From: Thermoproteota archaeon
GTDB taxonomy: Archaea; Thermoproteota; Methanomethylicia; Methanomethylicales; Methanomethylicaceae
Length of the DNA: 64,000 nucleotides
NCBI GenBank assembly: GCA_016882195.1
Contig: VGLU01000004.1
Location: forward strand, 5,572-69,571
Direction of reading: 5' to 3'
Positions within the stretch are counted from its first letter, which is position 1; every line of letters starts with the position of its first letter. Both the position numbers and the translations under genes were made by a program. The notes under the pieces are model-generated. The model saw only the letters and a list, made by a program, of their open reading frames with translations. It had not been told where the DNA came from and did no database searches. Shown piece after piece: positions 12,531-49,557 of the stretch.

Positions 12531-12925
12531 GTTCTGTAAAGACTTCGTCGGATTTAAATACCTAATCTAATTGCGGGGGCGAGGCGAAAGGAGGCTACAG
12601 GGCTGATCCTAGGCTCATTTCAATTAATTGACTGCAGCGAAACGAGGAATCGCATCAACTGTACGCCCGATATGTGGGGAGAGACTCCTGAATGGGCAAG
12701 GTTGCCGTATGAGGCGTTCATACGGAATGGAGGCAGACGGGGACGCGGTTGCCATGATGAAACAGCCCTGAGGGGGCGGTTGAGGTTCGACCGTTCCCTG
12801 CCTTTAAACGATAAGGCGAAAGGCTGGGCAGTTGAAGCGGTGAGGGGGAACCCGACGACTACGGTAATCCTCGGAGCTGATGCCCCGAAGTCGACTGTTC
12901 GCCAAACGGAGAGTTGACAGAACCC
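12531..12925 (+). mobile_element. MITE-like internally deleted derivative of the TnpB IS (left end + tnpB 3' end + right end, no nuclease ORF)
   Basis: Left-end motif TGTAAAG..TCGTCGGATTTAAATAC matches 42008-42036 upstream of the full copy. Positions 12660-12925 match the tnpB zinc-finger region and right end of 43007-43273. The only ORF is an 81-aa frame-degraded remnant. Confidence 0.55.
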
Positions 12926-14617: not shown

Positions 14618-15091
14618 TTACTCTATCACTATCAGCGGATCTCCTACGTTCACGAACTTGCCTGGCTGTACCATGATCTCCTTCACCTTTCCAGCCCTGT
14701 TGGACTTTATGGGGTTCTCCATCTTCATCGTCTCAAGGGCCATCACGACGTCTCCGGCCTTAACGGCGTCTCCGGCCTTTACCTTGATGGTCATGACTGT
14801 GCCAGGCATCGCTGCCTTGATGGCACCGCCGACTGCCGCTGCCGCTCCTGGTACTCCGGTTACTGTACCGCCGACTGCCGCTGCCGCTTTTGGACCTCCT
14901 GCTACCGTAGTGCCTGAAGAGGTGACCGCCGTCTGAGGTGAGGGCAATAGCATATCAGCGACGCTTATCCTGAAGGTCTCGTCGTTGACCTTGACGTCAT
15001 AGAGACCGTACGCCCTCTCGCTGATGTCTATGCTGTAGTGGGCGTTCCCGATGCTGAGTTTGAATTTGTTTGTTCTTGACACTGCCCGCAC
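14618..15091 (-). CDS. accB: biotin carboxyl carrier protein
   Basis: C-terminal biotinyl domain GDVVMALETMKMENPIKS. Confidence 0.8.
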   Translation of the reverse strand: MRAVSRTNKFKLSIGNAHYSIDISERAYGLYDVKVNDETFRISVADMLLPSPQTAVTSSGTTVAGGPKAAAAVGGTVTGVPGAAAAVGGAIKAAMPGTVMTIKVKAGDAVKAGDVVMALETMKMENPIKSNRAGKVKEIMVQPGKFVNVGDPLIVIE

Positions 15092-21190: not shown

Positions 21191-22987
21191 TTACAGCACG
21201 GTCACGGACTTTGCGAGGTTCCTTGGCTTATCCGGATCCAGCCCTCTGAAATTTGCGACATGGTAGGCAAAGACCTGCAAGGGGACCGTGCATAGCATCG
21301 GGTAGAGCAGATCAGGCGCCTCCGGGACCTCGAAGAACTCGTTGGAGACTTCCTTCAGCTCCTCGTCCCCCTCGGTGATTATGGAGAATATCTCTGCGCC
21401 TCTGGCCTTCATCTCCATGATGTTTCCGATCACCCTTCCTCGTGTAGCGTCCCTCGGGGCGATGAAGACGCAGAGGAAGTCCCGCTCCACCAGCGAGATG
21501 GGACCGTGTTTGGACTCCCCCGCCGGGTATCCCTCGGCGTGGATGTAGCTTATCTCCTTCAGTTTTAGGGCACCTTCCATGGCAGTTGCCACGTTTATCC
21601 CGCGGGCCAAGAAGAATGCGTTGCGCCTCGTGGAGTATTTCAGCGCCAATTCCTTGACCTTCTCGCACCTGCCTAGGGTCTCTTCGATCAACCGTGGTAA
21701 TCTGTTCATCTGTTGGCTCATCGATCTGTAATCCCCTTCGGAGATCCTTCCCTTCTTGAGCCCGACGCGCAGCGTGAGGAGGTCCAGTGCGGTGAGCTGA
21801 GTCAGGAAGGTCTTCGTCGCAGCCACGCCTATCTCAGGCCCGCTCTGCGTGCAGATGTAGGCGTTGGAGAGTACCGTGATGGACGAGCCCAAGGTGTTCG
21901 TTATCCCGAGTATCTTCGCCCCCTTGCCTTTTGCGTACTTGACGGCACTCAGGGTATCGGCGGTCTCCCCCGACTGCGAGACCGCCACCACCGTGCTCCC
22001 TTGGAGGTCAGAGACAGCCTCGTTGAACTCGGAGGAGAGTACCGGCCTCACGTCGATCCCGAGGAGCCTGGACATCATGTAGGAGGTTGAGAGGCAGGCG
22101 TGGTAGGAGGTTCCCGACCCGCTGAGGTAGATTTTATCGTTCAGCAGGTCTGCGGCACGGTCCAGGAAGGTCTCTGGCACCTTCAGCGTGTCCCTGATGG
22201 CAACGGGCTGGTCGTAGATCTCCTTTATCATGAAGTGTGGATACCCGCTCTTCTCCGCCATCTTCAGATCCCATGTCACGTTGGAGAATTGGGGTTCGAC
22301 TGCGCCACCGCCTATCTCCTCAAGATTAACCCTCCCTCTCTCAAGGGTCGCGATCGTATCATCCTGCATGATCAAGACCCTTTTTGTGAACGGCAGTAGC
22401 GCGGGGATGTCAGATGCGCAGTATGCGCCCTTGGGGCCTACGCCGATCACCAGGGGGCTCTCCCTTCGAACACAGATCATCTTGTTGGGCTCGGAGGTGC
22501 CTATGATGATGCATGCCATTGAGCCCTTTATGCTCTTAGTTGCCTGGACCACGGCCTCTTTTAGGGGAAGGCCCGCCTTCATGCCCTCCTCTATCATGTG
22601 AGGGATTACCTCTGTATCGGTGTTTGAGGTGAAGTGGTGCCCCTTCCTTGCGAGCTCCTCTCTAAGCTGGAGAAAGTTCTCTAAAACTCCATTGTGTACG
22701 ACTGCTATGGTTTTTGTACAGTCTAGATGAGGGTGGGCGTTCTCCTTGCAAGGAGCACCATGTGTCGCCCACCTCGTGTGGCCTACCCCAACTTCCCCAT
22801 AAAGTCGAGTCTCATCTAGACCACCTATAAATTGATCAATCCTTCCTTTATCCTTTTCTAAGGCAATTTTGTTATTGTTTATCACAGCGACCCCTACGGA
22901 GTCATATCCCCTGTACTCAAGTCGCTTCAGACCATCAAGTATCACCTGTGGGGCTCCATCGCAGAGGCACCCGAATATTCCGCACAC
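21191..22987 (-). CDS. glmS: glutamine-fructose-6-phosphate aminotransferase
   Basis: N-terminal CGIFG nucleophile (probable GTG start just before Cys) and two SIS domains. Confidence 0.9.
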   Translation of the reverse strand: MCGIFGCLCDGAPQVILDGLKRLEYRGYDSVGVAVINNNKIALEKDKGRIDQFIGGLDETRLYGEVGVGHTRWATHGAPCKENAHPHLDCTKTIAVVHNGVLENFLQLREELARKGHHFTSNTDTEVIPHMIEEGMKAGLPLKEAVVQATKSIKGSMACIIIGTSEPNKMICVRRESPLVIGVGPKGAYCASDIPALLPFTKRVLIMQDDTIATLERGRVNLEEIGGGAVEPQFSNVTWDLKMAEKSGYPHFMIKEIYDQPVAIRDTLKVPETFLDRAADLLNDKIYLSGSGTSYHACLSTSYMMSRLLGIDVRPVLSSEFNEAVSDLQGSTVVAVSQSGETADTLSAVKYAKGKGAKILGITNTLGSSITVLSNAYICTQSGPEIGVAATKTFLTQLTALDLLTLRVGLKKGRISEGDYRSMSQQMNRLPRLIEETLGRCEKVKELALKYSTRRNAFFLARGINVATAMEGALKLKEISYIHAEGYPAGESKHGPISLVERDFLCVFIAPRDATRGRVIGNIMEMKARGAEIFSIITEGDEELKEVSNEFFEVPEAPDLLYPMLCTVPLQVFAYHVANFRGLDPDKPRNLAKSVTVL

Positions 22988-23032
22988 GAAGGACACCAAA
23001 CAGAATTGATATCGCCAGTATAATTAAAAAAG

Positions 23033-24982
23033 TTATCTGGGAGCGCCTTCCAGGCGCCTCCGGATCTCCTCCTTGAGCAACTCATGGAGTACCTTGCCGC
23101 CGACCTTCCCCCTGAAGGTCTTCATCAGATCGCCCATCAGCGGGCTTAGGGCGCGCTCGCCGTCCCGCCTTATCCTCTCCATGTTCCTGCCCACCAGCTC
23201 GGCGACGGCGGCCTTTAGCGCAGCGGTGTCCACCGCACCGAGCGAGAGAGCCCTCGTGGCCTCCTCAATGCTCCTTCCCCTGTTGGACGCGAGCCACCGG
23301 AAGATCTCGGCCACGGCCTCCTTTGCAACCTCCCCCTTGTGCACCCTTATCAGGACATCCCTGATCTGCCCCTCCTCCAGCGACTCCACGTCTATCCCCT
23401 CCCGCTTCAGCATCTTTAGGGTGTACTCGAAGGTCGCTGCGACGAAGGAGGGTGCCAGCCCATCAGATTTAACGAGCCTCTCAAAGGTTATTGCGTAGGG
23501 CGAGTCGACTATTAACGCGGCGAGGTCCTTGCTCAGCCCGTACTCCTTTATGTACCGCTCCGTTCTCTTCTCCAGAAGCTCCGGGAGATCCCTCCTTATT
23601 TTGTCGAGCAGGTCTGCACCAACGACTATGGAGGGGACGTCGGTCTCGGGGTACATCCTGGCCGAGCCTGGCATCGGCCTCATGAAGTGGGTCGTGCCAT
23701 CTGGATTGAAGGCCCTCACCTCGCCGGGGACGCCCTTCAAAGCCTCCGATGCCCTCATGACAACGGCATTCAGAGCGACCGAGCCGACCGCTGCCTCGGC
23801 GGCGACGAAGACCACGGCGTCGTTCTCGGTGGCACTGACCTTCTTCCTCAACCCCCTAAGATCCTCCTCCGTGATGCCGTAGGCGGGCAGCTCGTCTGTG
23901 TGGAATATGCCGCCGACCCCACCGAAGACCTTTGCGTGGTCTGAGAGCTCCATGCCGAACCTCCTACCCGGCTGCAACTCCGTCTTGAGGAGACCACCGT
24001 AGCCTGGCAGGAGGACGGCCTGCACCCTTCCGCCGGACTCCAGGGCCTTTTTTATAACCTTGCCGTTCGAGGATGAGAATACGTCGGTTACGTCCACGAC
24101 CTTGGGCCTTGGGGCGGTTACGCCCCTCCTCTTCAGCTCCTCCCTCAGCAGGAGTAGGTTCCTCTGCCTGGTGACCTCGTACTCCACCACGGTTGAGATG
24201 AGGCCCAGCTCTTGGACGCCCTTCACCTCGATCCTCGTTCCTCCCTCTATGGAGATGTTCAGATCCTGCCGTATGGTTCCCAGCCCCCGCTTCATCCTCC
24301 CGGTTGCCTTCAGGATCCTGCCGAGTTGGAGGGCGACGCGCTCGGCCTGCTCCCCGCTGTGGATGTCCGGTCCTGTTGCGATCTCCACGAGGGGAATCCC
24401 GAGGCGGTCAAGCCGGTAGGTCATCATTTCGGGGGTATCGGAGATCTTCCTCGCGGCATCCTCCTCGAGGCAGAGGGACTGCATGGTGATCCTCTCCTCG
24501 CCGTCCATGAGCCAGCCGTCAAACGCGATCTTGGCGGTCCGCTGAAACCCGGTGGTGTTGGAGCCATCTATGACGATCTTCCTCATCACATGTATCTCGT
24601 CAACGGGGGTCATGTTCAGGAGCGCCGCCACCGTTAATGATATGGAGACCGCGTCCCTGTTCAGGTCGTGGGGCGGCTCCTCGTCGAGCTCCACGAGGCA
24701 GACTGTATCGTTATAGCCCTGGTAGCAGAAGGTCCTCCTCCTCTCTGACTCGAAGAGCGCCGCCCTGTCGAGATCCCCGAGCTCGCTGTATGTCGGCTTC
24801 AGCCTCCTCAGGATCGAGAAGTGCGGATCCTCCTCCCTGAGAACGGTCGGGCAGCCGCAGAAGAGCTTCTTGGGGGTGTCGAGCTGCTGGTGAATCTCTA
24901 TACCCACTTTGATGTGATGGTTGACACTCTCCACGGCTAAAGCCGGGAGATTCCTGCCTCTAAAGGCTTCATGACCATTCAT
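23033..24982 (-). CDS. gatE: Glu-tRNA(Gln) amidotransferase subunit E
   Basis: GIEIHQQL...LFCGCP GatB-like core plus archaeal insertion. True start probably ~24934; the ORF N-terminus overlaps the TnpB stop. Confidence 0.85.
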   Translation of the reverse strand: MNGHEAFRGRNLPALAVESVNHHIKVGIEIHQQLDTPKKLFCGCPTVLREEDPHFSILRRLKPTYSELGDLDRAALFESERRRTFCYQGYNDTVCLVELDEEPPHDLNRDAVSISLTVAALLNMTPVDEIHVMRKIVIDGSNTTGFQRTAKIAFDGWLMDGEERITMQSLCLEEDAARKISDTPEMMTYRLDRLGIPLVEIATGPDIHSGEQAERVALQLGRILKATGRMKRGLGTIRQDLNISIEGGTRIEVKGVQELGLISTVVEYEVTRQRNLLLLREELKRRGVTAPRPKVVDVTDVFSSSNGKVIKKALESGGRVQAVLLPGYGGLLKTELQPGRRFGMELSDHAKVFGGVGGIFHTDELPAYGITEEDLRGLRKKVSATENDAVVFVAAEAAVGSVALNAVVMRASEALKGVPGEVRAFNPDGTTHFMRPMPGSARMYPETDVPSIVVGADLLDKIRRDLPELLEKRTERYIKEYGLSKDLAALIVDSPYAITFERLVKSDGLAPSFVAATFEYTLKMLKREGIDVESLEEGQIRDVLIRVHKGEVAKEAVAEIFRWLASNRGRSIEEATRALSLGAVDTAALKAAVAELVGRNMERIRRDGERALSPLMGDLMKTFRGKVGGKVLHELLKEEIRRRLEGAPR

Positions 24983-26231
24983 GGTAGTTCCACCTCAAGG
25001 GCAGGGGCTGTGCCATCAGCCCGCTACCGCTGGTCTTCCCTTCATATGAGTCTGTGCTAAGGACTGGGGGAGACCTTTTCACGGCTACGTTCAATATGTT
25101 TACAGCACCGTTGACGTCGGCGTTGATGCTTTTATGCTTCTCACGGCAGATCATCAGTCCCCTTTCTATCCTGCCGTTGTGCTGTTTTCCGCACAGGCAG
25201 CATGTCCTCGACGTATCCCTCTCAGAGACTTTCTTAACGATTATGCCGTACTCTTCTCCAAGTTCAAGGATACGCTTGACGATTTTGTCGTAGGCCCAGA
25301 AGAGATGTAGCTTCTGATTTCCTCTTTTGCCGTGGTTTGCCTCTTCTCTGATTCCGTTGAGGTCCCCGATGTAAAGTTCACTCACGTTCCCCTGTTCCAA
25401 ATGCGAAAAGATGCTCCTTAACATGGCGTTTATTGCGTGCTTCAGCCTTCTCTGTCTTCTCCTAAACTGAAGCCGAATACGTTTGGATGCGTGTCTTTTT
25501 CGTGGGAGTTTTGACTGCTTATCCGCTATCTCCTTTGTATGGTAAATCCAGTCTGAGAGAACTGCTCTGCCAGAGTAGATTATTGGTCTCTCGCCCTCTA
25601 TATAGAGGGTTGCAAGGTTGCATATGCCCAGATCCAAGGATGCCTTTTTGGCATCGGTTTGACTCCGACTCGGAGGCTGCCAATCAACCTCGACTGGGAT
25701 ATGGGCATACCACCTCCTGTTGATCTCATCTTTTATGACTTCTAATCGACCCCACTTACCCACCCACAGCTCTCCGCATTGATAGGGAATCCTGTTTCTG
25801 GAGATTGAGATTTCTTTTTCGTTCATTCTCCAGCCGTCGTTTCTAACGTAGAACGCCTTCGCCTCTCTTTTTCCGTTTCGCTTCCAATATTTTGGTGGAC
25901 GTATCTTGCGAATATGTGGTGGTAACTTTCCCTTTTTCTTGAGTCTGAGAAGGGCATGGAAGCTCTGCCAAGCCTCATTAAGTTTTGAAAGCAGAGCCTG
26001 TGCCTTACAGGTTCCAAGTTTCTTGAAGGGTTCAGTATGTTTAAGTTCTCTGCATTGAAGAGCGTAAGAAGGCATTTTCATATGTTCGTAGAAGGCTTTT
26101 CTACGCTCATAGTTTGCAATGTTCCATAAGATGGCTGACTGTTCAGCGTATTCACTAAGTGATTGTGTATCGGTGGGTTTGAGGAGAACCGTTGAGGTCC
26201 TTAGCACGTTTAATATGTTCTCAGAGCCCAT
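24969..26231 (-). CDS. tnpB: TnpB-like protein inserted between gatD and gatE
   Basis: 420 aa, RuvC-like core plus zinc finger RTCCLCGKQHNG...ICREKHKSINADVNGAVNI. Confidence 0.8.
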   Translation of the reverse strand: MGSENILNVLRTSTVLLKPTDTQSLSEYAEQSAILWNIANYERRKAFYEHMKMPSYALQCRELKHTEPFKKLGTCKAQALLSKLNEAWQSFHALLRLKKKGKLPPHIRKIRPPKYWKRNGKREAKAFYVRNDGWRMNEKEISISRNRIPYQCGELWVGKWGRLEVIKDEINRRWYAHIPVEVDWQPPSRSQTDAKKASLDLGICNLATLYIEGERPIIYSGRAVLSDWIYHTKEIADKQSKLPRKRHASKRIRLQFRRRQRRLKHAINAMLRSIFSHLEQGNVSELYIGDLNGIREEANHGKRGNQKLHLFWAYDKIVKRILELGEEYGIIVKKVSERDTSRTCCLCGKQHNGRIERGLMICREKHKSINADVNGAVNILNVAVKRSPPVLSTDSYEGKTSGSGLMAQPLPLRWNYHEWS

Positions 26232-26299
26232 ATTTAAGCCTCGCCAACTCCGCGATTAAAATCGGGAGCTTGCGCTCGGAGTATTTTCTGTCAAATGTA

Positions 26300-27616
26300 T
26301 CAGCCCCTTTCCACATCAATGAAATCACTGCGTTCCGACAGCTCTCCCGCGATGTTCTTCAGGAAGAGCTCGCGGATCTTCTCGGGCTCGTCGGTCTGAC
26401 CCAAGACCCACATTAGCTTCACGAGGGCGGTCTCCGGGAGCATGTCTCCCGCGGGGATGACGCCCATGTTGAGAAGCTCCCTGCCGGTGCTGTAGACGTT
26501 CATGTTCACCCGCCCGTACAGGCACTGGGAGGCCATGACCACGGTCAGGCCGCTCTGAATCGCCCTTCTTATCGAGGGGAAGAGGCTCTCTGGCAGGTGC
26601 CCGAGACCGGTTCCCTCGAGGACTATGCCGCGGAAGCCCCTGTGGATTACGGGGTCGAAAATGTCTGGGGGCACCCCCGGGAAGGACTTGATTAGCACCA
26701 CGTCCTCCTCGAAGTTTGCCTTGAGCTCGAGCTCGCCACCGCCCCTCCTCCTGTACCCGCCGTAGGTCTCTATCTTGCCGTCCTGAACCCTGGCGAGGGG
26801 GAGGGCGTTTACAGAGGCGAAGGCGTCCCGCCGGCTCGTGTGCAACTTTCTTACTCTTGTGCCCCGGTGAACTACGAGGCTCGAGTCAGAGCTGCCCCCG
26901 TGCATTAGCACGCCGACCTCGGCGAAGGGGGCCCTCGCGGCTGCAAAGACGGCGCCCTTCAGGTTCAGATAGGCGTCCGAGGAGGGTCTGTCCGATGAGC
27001 GCTGGGAGCCGACCAGAATAACCGGTACAGGAAGGTTACTTAGGGCGAAGCTCAGCGCCGCGGCCGTGTACCCCATGGTGTCGGTGCCGTGCGTTATCAC
27101 GACGCCCTTGGCACCGTCCTTTATGTGGTTGGACACGGACCTCGCCATGGATCCCCAGTTCTCTGGAACGATGTTCTCGCTGAGGACGCTCAGAAGGATC
27201 TCGGTCCTGATGTCCGCCAGATCGCCCAGCTCAGGCACGGACTGGTAGAGGTCCCTCGCGGAGAGGGCCGGGCTCACCGCACCGGTCCTGTAGTCCACCT
27301 TGCTCGCGATGGTCCCGCCGGTGCTTATAATGGAGACCTTCGGCAGGCTGGGGTTGGACTTTGCCTCGAAGGGGGGCGGGCTTATTTTTGACTCCTCGGA
27401 GGGGAGCTTCTGGACGACTAATCCCTCTATGGAGAGGCCGATGTTGTAGCCGTCGTCGAGCTTCAGTATGAGGTGCTGGTCGTCGTCCAGCTCTGACCTC
27501 GGCATCAGGATTCCGGAGAAGGAGATCCTCTCGTTTTTGGCGAGAACCCTGTCGCCCACTTCTAGGCCGTGTTTCTTTATGAGCTCCAGAACCTTGCCTT
27601 TGTAACCAGAGACCAT
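26300..27616 (-). CDS. gatD: Glu-tRNA(Gln) amidotransferase subunit D (asparaginase-like)
   Basis: TGGTIAS, HGTDTM asparaginase motifs; 438 aa. Confidence 0.9.
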   Translation of the reverse strand: MVSGYKGKVLELIKKHGLEVGDRVLAKNERISFSGILMPRSELDDDQHLILKLDDGYNIGLSIEGLVVQKLPSEESKISPPPFEAKSNPSLPKVSIISTGGTIASKVDYRTGAVSPALSARDLYQSVPELGDLADIRTEILLSVLSENIVPENWGSMARSVSNHIKDGAKGVVITHGTDTMGYTAAALSFALSNLPVPVILVGSQRSSDRPSSDAYLNLKGAVFAAARAPFAEVGVLMHGGSSDSSLVVHRGTRVRKLHTSRRDAFASVNALPLARVQDGKIETYGGYRRRGGGELELKANFEEDVVLIKSFPGVPPDIFDPVIHRGFRGIVLEGTGLGHLPESLFPSIRRAIQSGLTVVMASQCLYGRVNMNVYSTGRELLNMGVIPAGDMLPETALVKLMWVLGQTDEPEKIRELFLKNIAGELSERSDFIDVERG

Positions 27617-27824
27617 AGTTCAGCACCCCACCCCATGTACCAAATCGGCGCCACGTCTTTATTTAATAGTGCTCTTGGAAATACTTAACACTAATGATGA
27701 CGGCCGACGGCTTTTGGGCTCAGAGCCCCTTATACGCCTGCGGAATGTTATGTTAAACCCGAAGATAAATAAGTTTAATAAGTCAAATATTCATCTAACA
27801 GTTGATTTTGATGGAGGACTAAAA

Positions 27825-42004: not shown

Positions 42005-43273
42005 TTTTGTAAACTTTTCGTTGGATTTAAATACATGACCAATTGTTGGGAAACCATAATTTGTGATAGCTATAAAGAGTGTAAGGCAACGTTACATTCC
42101 ATCATGTATAATACTATGCTTAATGGAGCAATTCAGACTCATGATCAATGAGTGTATAGAAATAGGTATGACGAGTAACATTTCTTCGCTGAAAGCGCTC
42201 TCTATGAGGGCATATCATAAACTTGAGCCTTATAATGTGCCATCTTACTACAAGCTTTGTGCCATTTCAAGAGCGGCAGTGATTCTTACGTCAAGAAGGA
42301 AGTCGCTACGAAGGGGCATGCCGACTAAGAGCCCTTACGTCATGCGGCGGCATCTTACCTCATGCTATGGATTCAAATTCATCGGTAATGCTATAAGAAT
42401 ACCGGTGGGGCATAGAGAGTTCTTTGAAATTGAGTTAAACAAACACACTCAAGAGATTCTCTCCGACCCTGCCTTGAGGGTGCGTTCCTTTACACTAACG
42501 AACACCCATTTGAGCATCTGCTACTCGAAGGATGTTCAGGAACTGGAATGTGCAGATATCGCTGGCTTGGACAGAAATCTGAGAAACATCACCTATGGCA
42601 ACGATCAGCATGTAGTAAAATACAACCTATCAGAAGCAGTTAAGATAGCCAGGCGGACGAGCAAGATCATTGCTTCCTTCAAAAGGAAGGACATGCGGAT
42701 AAGGAAGAGGATAGCGTCGAAGTATGGACGGAGACAAAGGAACAGGGTCAACCAACTGCTTCATAATACAACCAAAGACATTGTTGAAAGGGCGTTTGCG
42801 AAAAGGGAGGCGATAGTTCTTGAGGATATTAGAGGCATTAGGAAATTGTATCGAAAGGGAAACGGACAAAGTCACAGATACAGAGGCATAATGAACGCTT
42901 GGTCATTCTGCGAGGTGCAGAGACAGATAGAGTACAAGGCGAAATGGAAAGGCATCCCAGTAATGCGCCTATCCAAAGAGGAAACTATGGGCACCTCCAC
43001 CCTCTGCCCGATATGTGGGGAGAGACTCCTGAATGGGCAATATATTAGCCGCCAGTTGTGGTGTCCTTCATGTGGAATGAAAGCAGACCGGGACATAGTT
43101 GCTGTATTAAATCAATCGCATAGGGGACGGGTGAGGTTCGCCCGTTCCCTGCCATGTGATGATAAGGCGAAAGGCGGGGCAGCTGAAGCTATGAGGGGGA
43201 ACCCTCTACGGATGGAGGTAATCCTCAGAGTCGATGCCCCGAAGTCGAGTCATGATAAAGACTTGACAGAACC
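42005..43273 (+). mobile_element. complete TnpB-only IS200/IS605-family element copy C
   Basis: Left-end motif TGTAAAC..TCGTTGGATTTAAATAC (shared with 12535-12563), tnpB, right end ending CTTGACAGAACC. Lies 38 nt upstream of a tRNA gene. Confidence 0.65.
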
Positions 43274-43283
43274 TAAGCTTTAA
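42063..43283 (+). CDS. tnpB: TnpB (IS200/IS605 OrfB)
   Basis: 406 aa with RuvC-like core and zinc finger CPICGERLLNGQ...WCPSCGMKADRDIVAVLNQ. Confidence 0.85.
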   Translation: MIAIKSVRQRYIPSCIILCLMEQFRLMINECIEIGMTSNISSLKALSMRAYHKLEPYNVPSYYKLCAISRAAVILTSRRKSLRRGMPTKSPYVMRRHLTSCYGFKFIGNAIRIPVGHREFFEIELNKHTQEILSDPALRVRSFTLTNTHLSICYSKDVQELECADIAGLDRNLRNITYGNDQHVVKYNLSEAVKIARRTSKIIASFKRKDMRIRKRIASKYGRRQRNRVNQLLHNTTKDIVERAFAKREAIVLEDIRGIRKLYRKGNGQSHRYRGIMNAWSFCEVQRQIEYKAKWKGIPVMRLSKEETMGTSTLCPICGERLLNGQYISRQLWCPSCGMKADRDIVAVLNQSHRGRVRFARSLPCDDKAKGGAAEAMRGNPLRMEVILRVDAPKSSHDKDLTEPKL

Positions 43284-45969: not shown

Positions 45970-46061
45970 TGGCGGGCCCGGAGGGATTCGAACCCTCGAC
46001 CATCGACTATCTCCGAGATCACCGGAGGCCGACGCCCTGATCCAGACTAGGCCACGGGCCC
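45970..46061 (-). tRNA. tRNA-Arg(CCG) with a 13-nt intron at canonical position 37/38
   Basis: Acceptor GGGCCCG, U8, D-arm GCCU/GGGC with A20, anticodon stem UCGGC/GUCGA, loop CU-CCG-G[intron UGAUCUCGGAGAU]A, T-arm GAGGGUUCGAAUCCCUC, discriminator G, encoded CCA. A 3-nt bulge AUA contains the 3' splice site next to a CUCC/GGAG helix. Confidence 0.8.
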
Positions 46062-49450: not shown

Positions 49451-49557
49451 TCCTCCTCTTCCTCGAATTCCTCCTCTTCCTCTGGCCACTCCTCCTCTTC
49501 CTCTGGCCACTCCTCCTCTTCCTCTGTCCAGTCCTCCTCAAAATCCTCCTCTTGTCC
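49451..49557. repeat. tandem ~21-nt repeats (TCCTCCTCTTCCTCTGGCCAC x2 plus degenerate flanking copies)
   Basis: Direct repeats in the 237-nt spacer between the TFS-like gene and yrdC. In the minus frame of the TFS-like gene they encode EEEEEWP repeats; in another frame QRKRRSG repeats. Confidence 0.6.

Follow-up and report, generated by a model that had tools for sequence, protein, structure and literature searches.

A tnpB-only IS200/IS605-type element inserted in the start of gatE in Candidatus Methanomethylicia, with a right end that probably carries the gene's present start

The gatDE locus discussed here lies in a stretch of 64,000 nucleotides (the window; contig VGLU01000004.1, assembly GCA_016882195.1) from a metagenome-assembled genome of Candidatus Methanomethylicia (Verstraetearchaeota), and it carries a gene for the RNA-guided nuclease family TnpB between gatD and gatE. 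We consider it likely that a complete, non-autonomous IS200/IS605 element with tnpB as its only gene inserted in the start of gatE, that gatE now starts inside the right end (RE) of this insertion sequence (IS), and that the insertion is old and has been subject to gene conversion. It is a mobile element of ordinary kind in an unusually instructive position, and neither a domesticated gene nor an artefact.

Gene order in the list of open reading frames (ORFs) is as the initial annotation had described it. At the coordinates of Table 1, gatD, tnpB and gatE follow one another on the same strand, 68 nt separate gatD from tnpB, and the tnpB stop lies inside the annotated gatE with an overlap of 14 nt. 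In the insertion-free relatives (L001, L004, L101-L110 and L113; loci from other assemblies are given by such numbers) gatD and gatE abut or overlap, which confirms that a TnpB insertion splits a normally contiguous gatDE pair. The empty junction of L001 reads ...TGT TGA TGC AGT TGG CTC ATC AC.... The element had been described as wedged exactly between the two genes. Insertion into the pair stands, the exact position between the genes does not: the insertion point, ATG CGG TTG AC/C CAT CAC (the slash marks the point of insertion here and below), falls inside gatE, within codons 2-4. At the same nucleotide position the element is carried by W (the window and L081-L084), B (L085) and D (L111/L112 and L114-L117), and it is absent from lineage C (L101-L107), from the outgroup O (L108-L110, L001) and from L113 and L004. 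W, B, C and D are roughly equidistant (88-90% nucleotide identity; about 10% diverged), with O at about 85%, and lineage C is as close to the window as the carrier L085.

The boundaries of the element were drawn from an alignment of 12-13 copies of its family from 10 unrelated insertion sites; a metagenome scan with TnpB gave no more than 8 loci, and the statistics on covariation and sites are limited accordingly. Similarity among the copies begins directly after TGAC and stops at ...GGAGAGTGTCAA. TGAC precedes all 10 independent insertion sites, with CGAC in one copy and TGAC in its orthologue. This is the radical-SAM site, where CGAC in L091 (2936-2939) and TGAC in L099 (2434-2437) point to a change of the putative transposon-adjacent motif (TAM) after insertion. 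When the flanks in the window are rejoined, they give GGGGCTGATACATTTGAC/CCATCACATCAAAGTGGGT and align without gaps to L101 (GGTGCTGATGCGGTTGAC CCATCACATCAAAGTAGGG), L001 and L108; the empty site of L101 reads GGTTGAC/CCATCAC. From this gapless match it follows that there is no target duplication, that TGAC is host sequence and that the insertion point lies within gatE. Native gatE sequence restarts at 24920, in codon 21 of the annotated ORF; the initial annotation had seen the conserved GatE N-terminus begin some 16 codons in. The GC content of the element is 0.474 (about 47%) compared to about 0.61 in its flanks, and TGAC overlaps a conserved TTG (26292-26294), a likely ancestral gatE start. 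The remaining copies of the family are close paralogues at 9 other unrelated sites.

Table 1. Features of the gatDE locus and of the inserted element (window coordinates)
Feature	Coordinates	Strand	Basis
gatD, upstream host gene	26300-27616	-	ORF list; Pfam GatD_N, Asparaginase, Asparaginase_C
TGAC target motif (putative TAM), host sequence directly 5' of the element	26290-26293	-	10 insertion sites
Whole insertion element, 1369 bp, tnpB only	24921-26289	-	12-13 family copies; gapless empty-site alignment
Left end (LE)	26232-26289	-	kept in 13 copies
LE subterminal hairpin CTCCCGATTTTAATCGCGGAG = CTCCCGAT-TTTA-ATCGCGGAG	26248-26268	-	direct reading of sequences
LE TATA-like box CTTAAAT	26232-26238	-	TATA scan
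tnpB ORF, 420 aa	24969-26231	-	ORF list; Pfam OrfB_IS605 and Cas12f1-like_TNB
Putative omegaRNA-like scaffold and RE	24921-25075	-	RNAalifold; covariation
Scaffold helix	25075-25068/25039-25032	-	RNAalifold
Scaffold helix	25021-25017/25010-25006	-	RNAalifold
Scaffold helix	25005-24997/24962-24953	-	RNAalifold
Scaffold helix	24994-24992/24967-24965	-	RNAalifold
RE hairpin (helix 9)	24950-24945/24934-24928	-	RNAalifold; compensatory pairs
Putative IS-borne gatE start: Shine-Dalgarno (SD)-like GAGGTGG 24990-24996, 7-nt spacer, ATG 24980-24982	24980-24996	-	sequence; ORF list
Alternative in-frame GTG in the RE hairpin, without SD motif	24932-24934	-	3' strand of helix 9
Annotated gatE ORF	23033-24982	-	ORF list; Pfam GatB_N, GAD, GatB_Yqey
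Native gatE body (HHIKVGIEIHQQL... to stop)	23033-24920	-	Pfam; dN/dS among carriers
Guide-equivalent flank CCATCACATCAAAGTGGGTA, first native gatE bases	24901-24920	-	L101 empty-site comparison
glmS, next gene after gatE	21191-22999	-	ORF list

Both ends have the architecture by which IS200/IS605 elements are recognised, namely subterminal imperfect hairpins at LE and RE and insertion 3' of a fixed motif without target-site duplication. The LE hairpin rests on sequences read directly; the RNAalifold alignment of this end was mis-registered by indels. Paired changes are visible by eye among the 13 copies (GAC/GTC in L093, CCCRC/GTGGG in L096-98). The RE finishes ...GAGTGTCAA, that is ...GTCAA at 24921, and its hairpin carries compensatory pairs. 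That no room remains for a conventional right end downstream of tnpB, as had been stated, is incorrect because the RE with its scaffold (about 25075-24921) overlaps the tnpB 3' end, as is usual in TnpB elements, and finishes 48 nt beyond the stop codon. A tnpA gene (Y1/HUH transposase) was found neither inside the 1369-bp element nor adjoining any family copy examined, without a genome-wide search for one acting in trans. Given that tnpB stands alone, we class the element as non-autonomous and IS1341-like.

The encoded protein scores above the cutoffs of the TnpB models (NCBIfam guided_TnpB 146.6 bits, cutoff 100; Pfam OrfB_IS605 77.1 bits, cutoff 30.5; Cas12f1-like_TNB 48 bits, cutoff 26.3). 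Its real start is probably GTG 26207, at the very beginning of a leaderless mRNA, because a TATA-like box lies about 28 nt upstream and protein conservation across the family begins there. The initial annotation had proposed to look at the catalytic residues, and they form a complete and intact RuvC triad of the rearranged type, D200, E337 and D372. An invariant glycine, G289 in the motif IGDL, stands where the canonical RuvC-II glutamate would be, and the invariant E337 lies within VSERDTSRTC. None of the three triad residues varies among 29 homologues, and in a set of 103 they are conserved to at least 98%. In a HMMER alignment to the mimivirus Fanzor2 (9b0l) they fall on D324, E467 and D501, the experimentally defined relocated triad of that protein (PMC11832414). 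Glycine-substituted 'rearranged' TnpBs, the RIIr groups, have been described (PMC10691335), and judged by its motifs the TnpB here corresponds to them. Between RuvC-II and RuvC-III lies a zinc finger with invariant C344, C347 and C362, the fourth ligand of which is probably a histidine, H366 or the invariant H351.

Structure prediction agrees with this assignment. The AlphaFold model (predicted local distance difference test, pLDDT, 73.6; disordered in the C-terminal tail, residues 387-420) finds 8h1j, the ISDra2 TnpB, with E = 2e-17, Cas12f with 1e-18 and 9b0l with 2e-13 in Foldseek, and the template modelling (TM) score against 8h1j is 0.61 when normalised to the query and 0.69 when normalised to the target. 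At the level of the family, the ratio of nonsynonymous to synonymous divergence (dN/dS) of tnpB is 0.09-0.20. The nuclease is predicted to be intact, and would by analogy cleave in an RNA-guided, TAM-dependent manner.

The last approximately 155 nt of the element overlap the coding part for the C-terminal tail of TnpB and run to the element tip. RNAalifold proposes 44 base pairs for this region, 9 of them with compensatory changes. The alignment holds 26 double-change cells, as compared to 10.9 +/- 2.2 in shuffles (0 of 500 reach 26) and 0-6 in slid controls, and the fold of the single sequence has z = -2.7. The RE/omegaRNA region matches no Rfam family, the sole Rfam match being a tRNA. By analogy with characterised TnpB systems (PMC10055086, PMC8612924, PMC10278001), the RNA would run on into the flank and use the first 16-20 nt of native gatE as its guide. 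TGAC followed by this guide-equivalent flank is the insertion-free gatDE junction. Lineage C keeps TGAC+CCATCACATCAAAGTA, in which 15 of the first 16 bases match the guide, with the single mismatch of L101 at guide position 16. In outgroup alleles TGGC replaces TGAC and a mismatch is found at guide position 10 (L108) or at positions 1 and 10 (L001). Within the window the only guide match is preceded by TCAA and not by TGAC, so that no self-targeting is expected.

Despite the insertion, gatE is still open and under selection, and the only in-frame starts upstream of it are those within the RE. Among the IS-bearing lineages its dN/dS is 0.14-0.16 at a synonymous divergence (dS) of 0.32-0.40, indicating purifying selection. 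Reading on from the upstream stop, the first start codon in frame is ATG 24982, at 62 nt from the RE tip, and gatE is most likely translated from it with GAGGTGG as SD. An SD-like motif is found near a start in 27 of 30 long ORFs, and gatD, which has a TATA-like box at 27667, carries GGGGTG at a similar spacing, 8 nt ahead of its ATG. The predicted N-terminus of GatE is MNGHEAFRGRNLPALAVESVN-HHIKVG..., in which 20 codons and two bases of the next one come from the IS. The proposal that the 5' end of gatE may be IS-derived is thus supported, and it extends to every plausible upstream start codon. A bacterial promoter and terminator scan is uninformative for an archaeon and was replaced by a scan for TATA boxes and T-runs. 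On the minus strand no run of five or more T occurs from 27760 to 24850, and no TATA-like box is found between 26238 and 24850. Since no terminator-like T-run separates the three genes, read-through from the insertion into gatE, which the initial annotation had suggested, is plausible, and gatD, tnpB and gatE may well be co-transcribed. That TnpB or RNA folding could modulate gatE translation is speculation.

An alternative reading of these data is that the element is a neutral passenger, with an internal promoter close to the 3' end of tnpB driving gatE and with translation from GTG 24934 or from the GTG of the conserved K-V-G (about 24908), so that the RE would not have been recruited at all. 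GTG 24934 would give an N-terminus of near-native length, the SD and ATG 24982 lie within predicted RNA structure, and the constraints of tnpB and omegaRNA can by themselves explain why the RE is conserved. Yet neither GTG has an SD-like motif, in contrast to ATG 24982 with its GAGGTGG at 7-nt spacing, which resembles gatD and most long ORFs; the TATA scan offers no internal promoter; and GTG 24934 would itself be IS-derived. We regard this alternative as unlikely.

Comparison of the carriers gives access to the history of the insertion. Between W and B, 22 of 1369 positions of the IS differ, with no indels (98.4% identity), compared to about 89% identity in the flanks, and the change from one level to the other coincides with the IS boundaries. 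Correspondingly, dS is 0.03 in tnpB and 0.33-0.42 in gatD and glmS. Purely vertical inheritance of the element was rejected because dS within the IS is lower by a factor of ten. In its interior the D copy has 85% identity to W and B but 93-95% to the L086 copy, which resides at another locus; the 5' 222 nt of the B copy are 100% identical to L086; and W is a mosaic relative to L086, with 93-99% identity at the ends and 65-79% in the middle. The last 120 nt of the element are 99-100% identical in all carriers despite about 10% divergence of the flanks. As a separate observation, L086 and L094 have a common 5' flank, and their IS variants (86% identical) and 3' flanks differ.

The carriers have a common haplotype in the flanks near the element (about -100 to +600). 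Informative sites that group W with B and C with O number 42 in this tract, as compared to 5 and 3 for the alternative groupings, while the counts elsewhere are 47, 56 and 48. Derived sites found only in W, B and D number 29 in the first 600 nt of gatE and 20 in the 3100 nt that follow. Over the first 200 codons, dS amounts to 0.60 between W and C and to 0.28 between W and B, so that the excess is at synonymous scale, and C is unusually close to O in the shared tract (0.91-0.93 identity compared to 0.77-0.82 further on). Two readings fit this pattern: either the insertion haplotype is old, or recombination with an O-like donor gave C back an allele without the insertion. We favour a single old insertion, the sequence of which gene conversion would have overwritten time and again, with paralogous or imported copies as donors; this is not proven.

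The same site could also have been hit repeatedly, either because the W, B and D copies are independent or because TnpB-driven homing carried the element between lineages into empty alleles. The step in identity at the IS boundaries, the different IS variant of D at the identical nucleotide, and the TAM with a 15/16 guide match retained in sister lineage C would all suit such a scenario, and TnpB homing has been documented in bacteria (PMC10055086). Against it, the flank haplotype shared by W, B and D, including a change from ATG to ATA and the 29 derived sites, mostly at synonymous scale, points to a long association of flank and element, and the mosaic identity with paralogues at other loci directly shows gene conversion. 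Moreover, a different variant could carry the gatE guide only if it already resided at the gatE site. Repeated insertion or homing appears quite unlikely to us, and homing as the sole cause was not favoured in view of the shared flank haplotype and the paralogue mosaics.

The change from ATG to ATA concerns the codon that overlaps the gatD stop, where carriers have ATA and lineages C and O have ATG. We considered that the ancestral gatE start decayed and that the host became locked in, and rejected the change as strong evidence for this: L113 also lacks the ATG, and several gene calls use the TTG two codons downstream. This TTG (26294-26292) is retained in the carriers and has the better SD spacing; the 12-codon ORF that begins with it now runs into the LE. 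By precise excision, gatE might still be returned to working order.

An exapted or domesticated TnpB, similar to TldR or to an immobilised clade, that regulates gatE or the gatDE operon through its guide RNA or protein is very unlikely. Long residence at one locus beside a guide-matching sequence and the near-identity of the last 120 nt among carriers would be expected of such a gene, and exapted TnpBs are known (PMC10691335). On the other side, the element has kept an intact, invariant catalytic triad together with intact ends and an intact TAM, and the target at the occupied site is preceded by TCAA and not by TGAC. In addition, paralogues occupy the 9 other sites. The initial annotation had considered that the gene may be fixed, or an ancient domesticated gene that all lineages share, and this can be set aside: the gatDE loci of C, which is equally close, and of O, L113 and L004 are without it. 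Absence from sister and outgroup lineages, intact ends, an intact triad and close paralogues elsewhere together identify the element as an IS rather than an exapted gene.

That an IS copy was falsely joined to gatDE during assembly is a negligible prospect: assemblers do struggle with this repeat, as L115 connects a Lhr/Lactamase_B flank with the gatE flank and both gatD-side contigs, L111 and L112, stop within the IS, but the junctions are identical in at least five independent assemblies or samples on contigs of up to 122 kb, with both junctions spanned in the window, L081 and L085. The mis-assembly at this junction that the initial annotation had allowed for is excluded by this recurrence, which comprises independent assemblies from four samples (L081-L084; TnpB 100% identical), a second lineage with 97% TnpB identity (L085), and a third in which L111/L112 cover the gatD side and L114-L117 the gatE side. 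At 3009-6950 of L115 the Lhr-helicase/Lactamase_B 5' flank known from L086 is connected to the gatE 3' flank through a 424-aa TnpB, either because the near-identical IS 3' end gave rise to a chimera in assembly or because two IS copies really recombined.

Taken together, we propose that an ancestor of several Candidatus Methanomethylicia lineages acquired the element 3' of TGAC, 2-4 codons into gatE. The gene would thereby have been separated from its own start and from gatD, to which the overlap with the gatD stop had coupled it. Transcripts that start at the gatD promoter, the LE promoter or both would read through tnpB into gatE, and translation would start at ATG 24982, so that a 21-residue N-terminal segment replaces 2-4 native residues. 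TnpB with its guide would cut TGAC+CCATCACATC..., which is the insertion-free allele (predicted target TGAC-CCATCACATCAAAGTG), and such cutting would favour retention or re-copying of the element. The insertion would be old (dS of about 0.3-0.4 between carriers) and not universal, with an interior homogenised by gene conversion with paralogous copies.

Several points weigh against this proposal. The omegaRNA, the activity of TnpB, the TAM and the gatE start are all deduced from sequence. The comparison of W and B tnpB does not by itself demonstrate selection (dN/dS 0.3-0.44, Fisher p = 0.10), as the differences are too few for significance. With no tnpA in the element or beside the copies examined, current mobility is unproven, and the mosaic history of the locus is the reason why a single old insertion is likewise not proven. 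The SD and ATG sit in a loop closed by scaffold helices 7 and 8 and could therefore be occluded. Finally, the host is not demonstrably locked in because the possible ancestral TTG start is still present upstream.

The gatE fusion has a counterpart in the same family. In L091 (TnpB 77% identical) a radical-SAM gene likewise 'starts' 14 nt ahead of the tnpB stop. Its rejoined flanks, ...CGG TAA TTG ATG CCT GGC GAC/GAG AGG AAC..., are in frame, and the insertion follows codon 4 of a gene that comes directly after an upstream stop. In both genes the insertion thus lies within the first four codons, in frame and directly after the stop codon of the upstream gene. L100 was considered as a third in-frame fusion and rejected, as its 93-codon downstream frame looks non-genic. 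In 9 of 12 family copies an ATG is kept at 62-63 nt from the RE tip, and its frame is open. It is possible, and we offer it tentatively, that the RE acts as a portable start module of SD, ATG and open frame, which lets the element survive insertion a few codons into the distal genes of translationally coupled operons, even essential ones, where it would become unusually hard to lose because the guide targets the restored essential allele and expression of the gene is rewired through the element. Two independent cases, gatE and the L091 radical-SAM gene, fit this idea. The kept ATG and open frame may also reflect only survivorship, in that in-frame insertions into needed genes persist.

The surroundings of gatDE differ between lineages. 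An ArsB/CitMHS permease gene and a Usp gene lie between the S26e gene and gatD in lineages B and D (L085 830-2556; L111 2205-3931), L113 has the permease only (1385-2641), and the window and lineage C have neither. On the lineage-C contig L103 (5320-7212) gatE is split into ORFs of 224 aa and 397 aa by a frameshift or stop, or by an assembly error.

The window contains further TnpB genes. An unrelated second family is represented by a full gene at 42063-43283 (+; 406 aa, Cas12f1-like_TNB), by a copy at 1 to about 500 (+) that is interrupted by the window start, and by a decayed remnant at 12660-12925 (+) in which only the zinc-finger part and the 3' structured region are kept. The 3' ends of these three copies are 76-100% identical and finish near ...GACTTGACAGAACC. 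A third TnpB gene lies at 891-1976 (-; 361 aa, guided_TnpB 194 bits), and overall the 64 kb are counted as holding four TnpB genes or remnants from three families. The tRNA-Arg(TCG) gene at 45970-46061 (-) is, with 92 nt, longer than standard and probably contains an intron. Tandem repeats at 49451-49534 and 14825-14908, in register, consist of a 21-nt unit TCCTCTTCCTCTGGCCACTCC (3-4 copies) and a 42-nt unit (2 copies) and are presumably coding low-complexity sequence.

The locus provides an archaeal TnpB element of the relocated-glutamate type that is delimited in full, with its ends, its TGAC target and putative TAM, a predicted omegaRNA scaffold, and a candidate natural guide together with a target allele. 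Such an element appears to have persisted for long (dS of about 0.3-0.4) within an essential gene while a sister lineage keeps a predicted-cleavable empty allele, and with that sister lineage at hand, retention, homing and loss can be studied in real populations. Two cautions arise from it: N-termini annotated for host genes beside TnpB elements can be IS-derived chimeras, and IS copies evolve in concert through gene conversion, so that an old insertion can look young.

Among known systems, the element is most readily compared to ISDra2, IS608 and the IS1341-type elements, with which it shares hairpins at both ends, the lack of a target duplication and insertion 3' of a short specific motif. 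The right end of IS608 finishes in TCAA, as it does here. The motif itself differs, TGAC here compared to TTGAT or TTAC in ISDra2 and IS608. As in these elements, tnpB reads toward the RE, and a structured RNA is predicted to overlap the tnpB 3' end and to run into the flank. Unlike those elements, the present one has no tnpA, an archaeal host and a relocated RuvC-II glutamate, and it sits inside the start of an essential gene, with its RE apparently read as the N-terminus of that gene. Other IS elements create hybrid promoters or fusion starts, where an outward signal at the end of the IS maintains or drives expression of its neighbour; in our literature search we found no published description of a TnpB-element RE that supplies an in-frame SD and ATG to a host gene. 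What sets the present case apart from those hybrid promoters is that translation from the SD and ATG would run in frame across RE and omegaRNA scaffold, both parts of a TnpB element. The protein resembles the RIIr TnpBs, 'TnpB2/pro-Fanzor' and Fanzor2 in having glycine for the RuvC-II glutamate (IGDL) and a glutamate some 48 residues downstream in VSE-x-x-TS-x-TC. Compared to the Fanzor2 protein ApmFz2 (PDB 9b0l, PMC11832414) it is prokaryotic, lacks a nuclear localisation signal and an N-terminal extension, and is 16% identical. The homing and retention nuclease of Meers et al. (PMC10055086) offers a further parallel, in that TAM and guide rebuild the insertion-free junction and a sister lineage carries that allele. 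In the present case the parallel is one of sequence, and the pattern is better explained by gene conversion among paralogues than by homing. Similar to TldR and other nuclease-dead exapted TnpBs, the element has resided for long beside a host gene that its guide would match; in contrast to them, its catalytic residues and transposon ends are intact and its presence is not universal.

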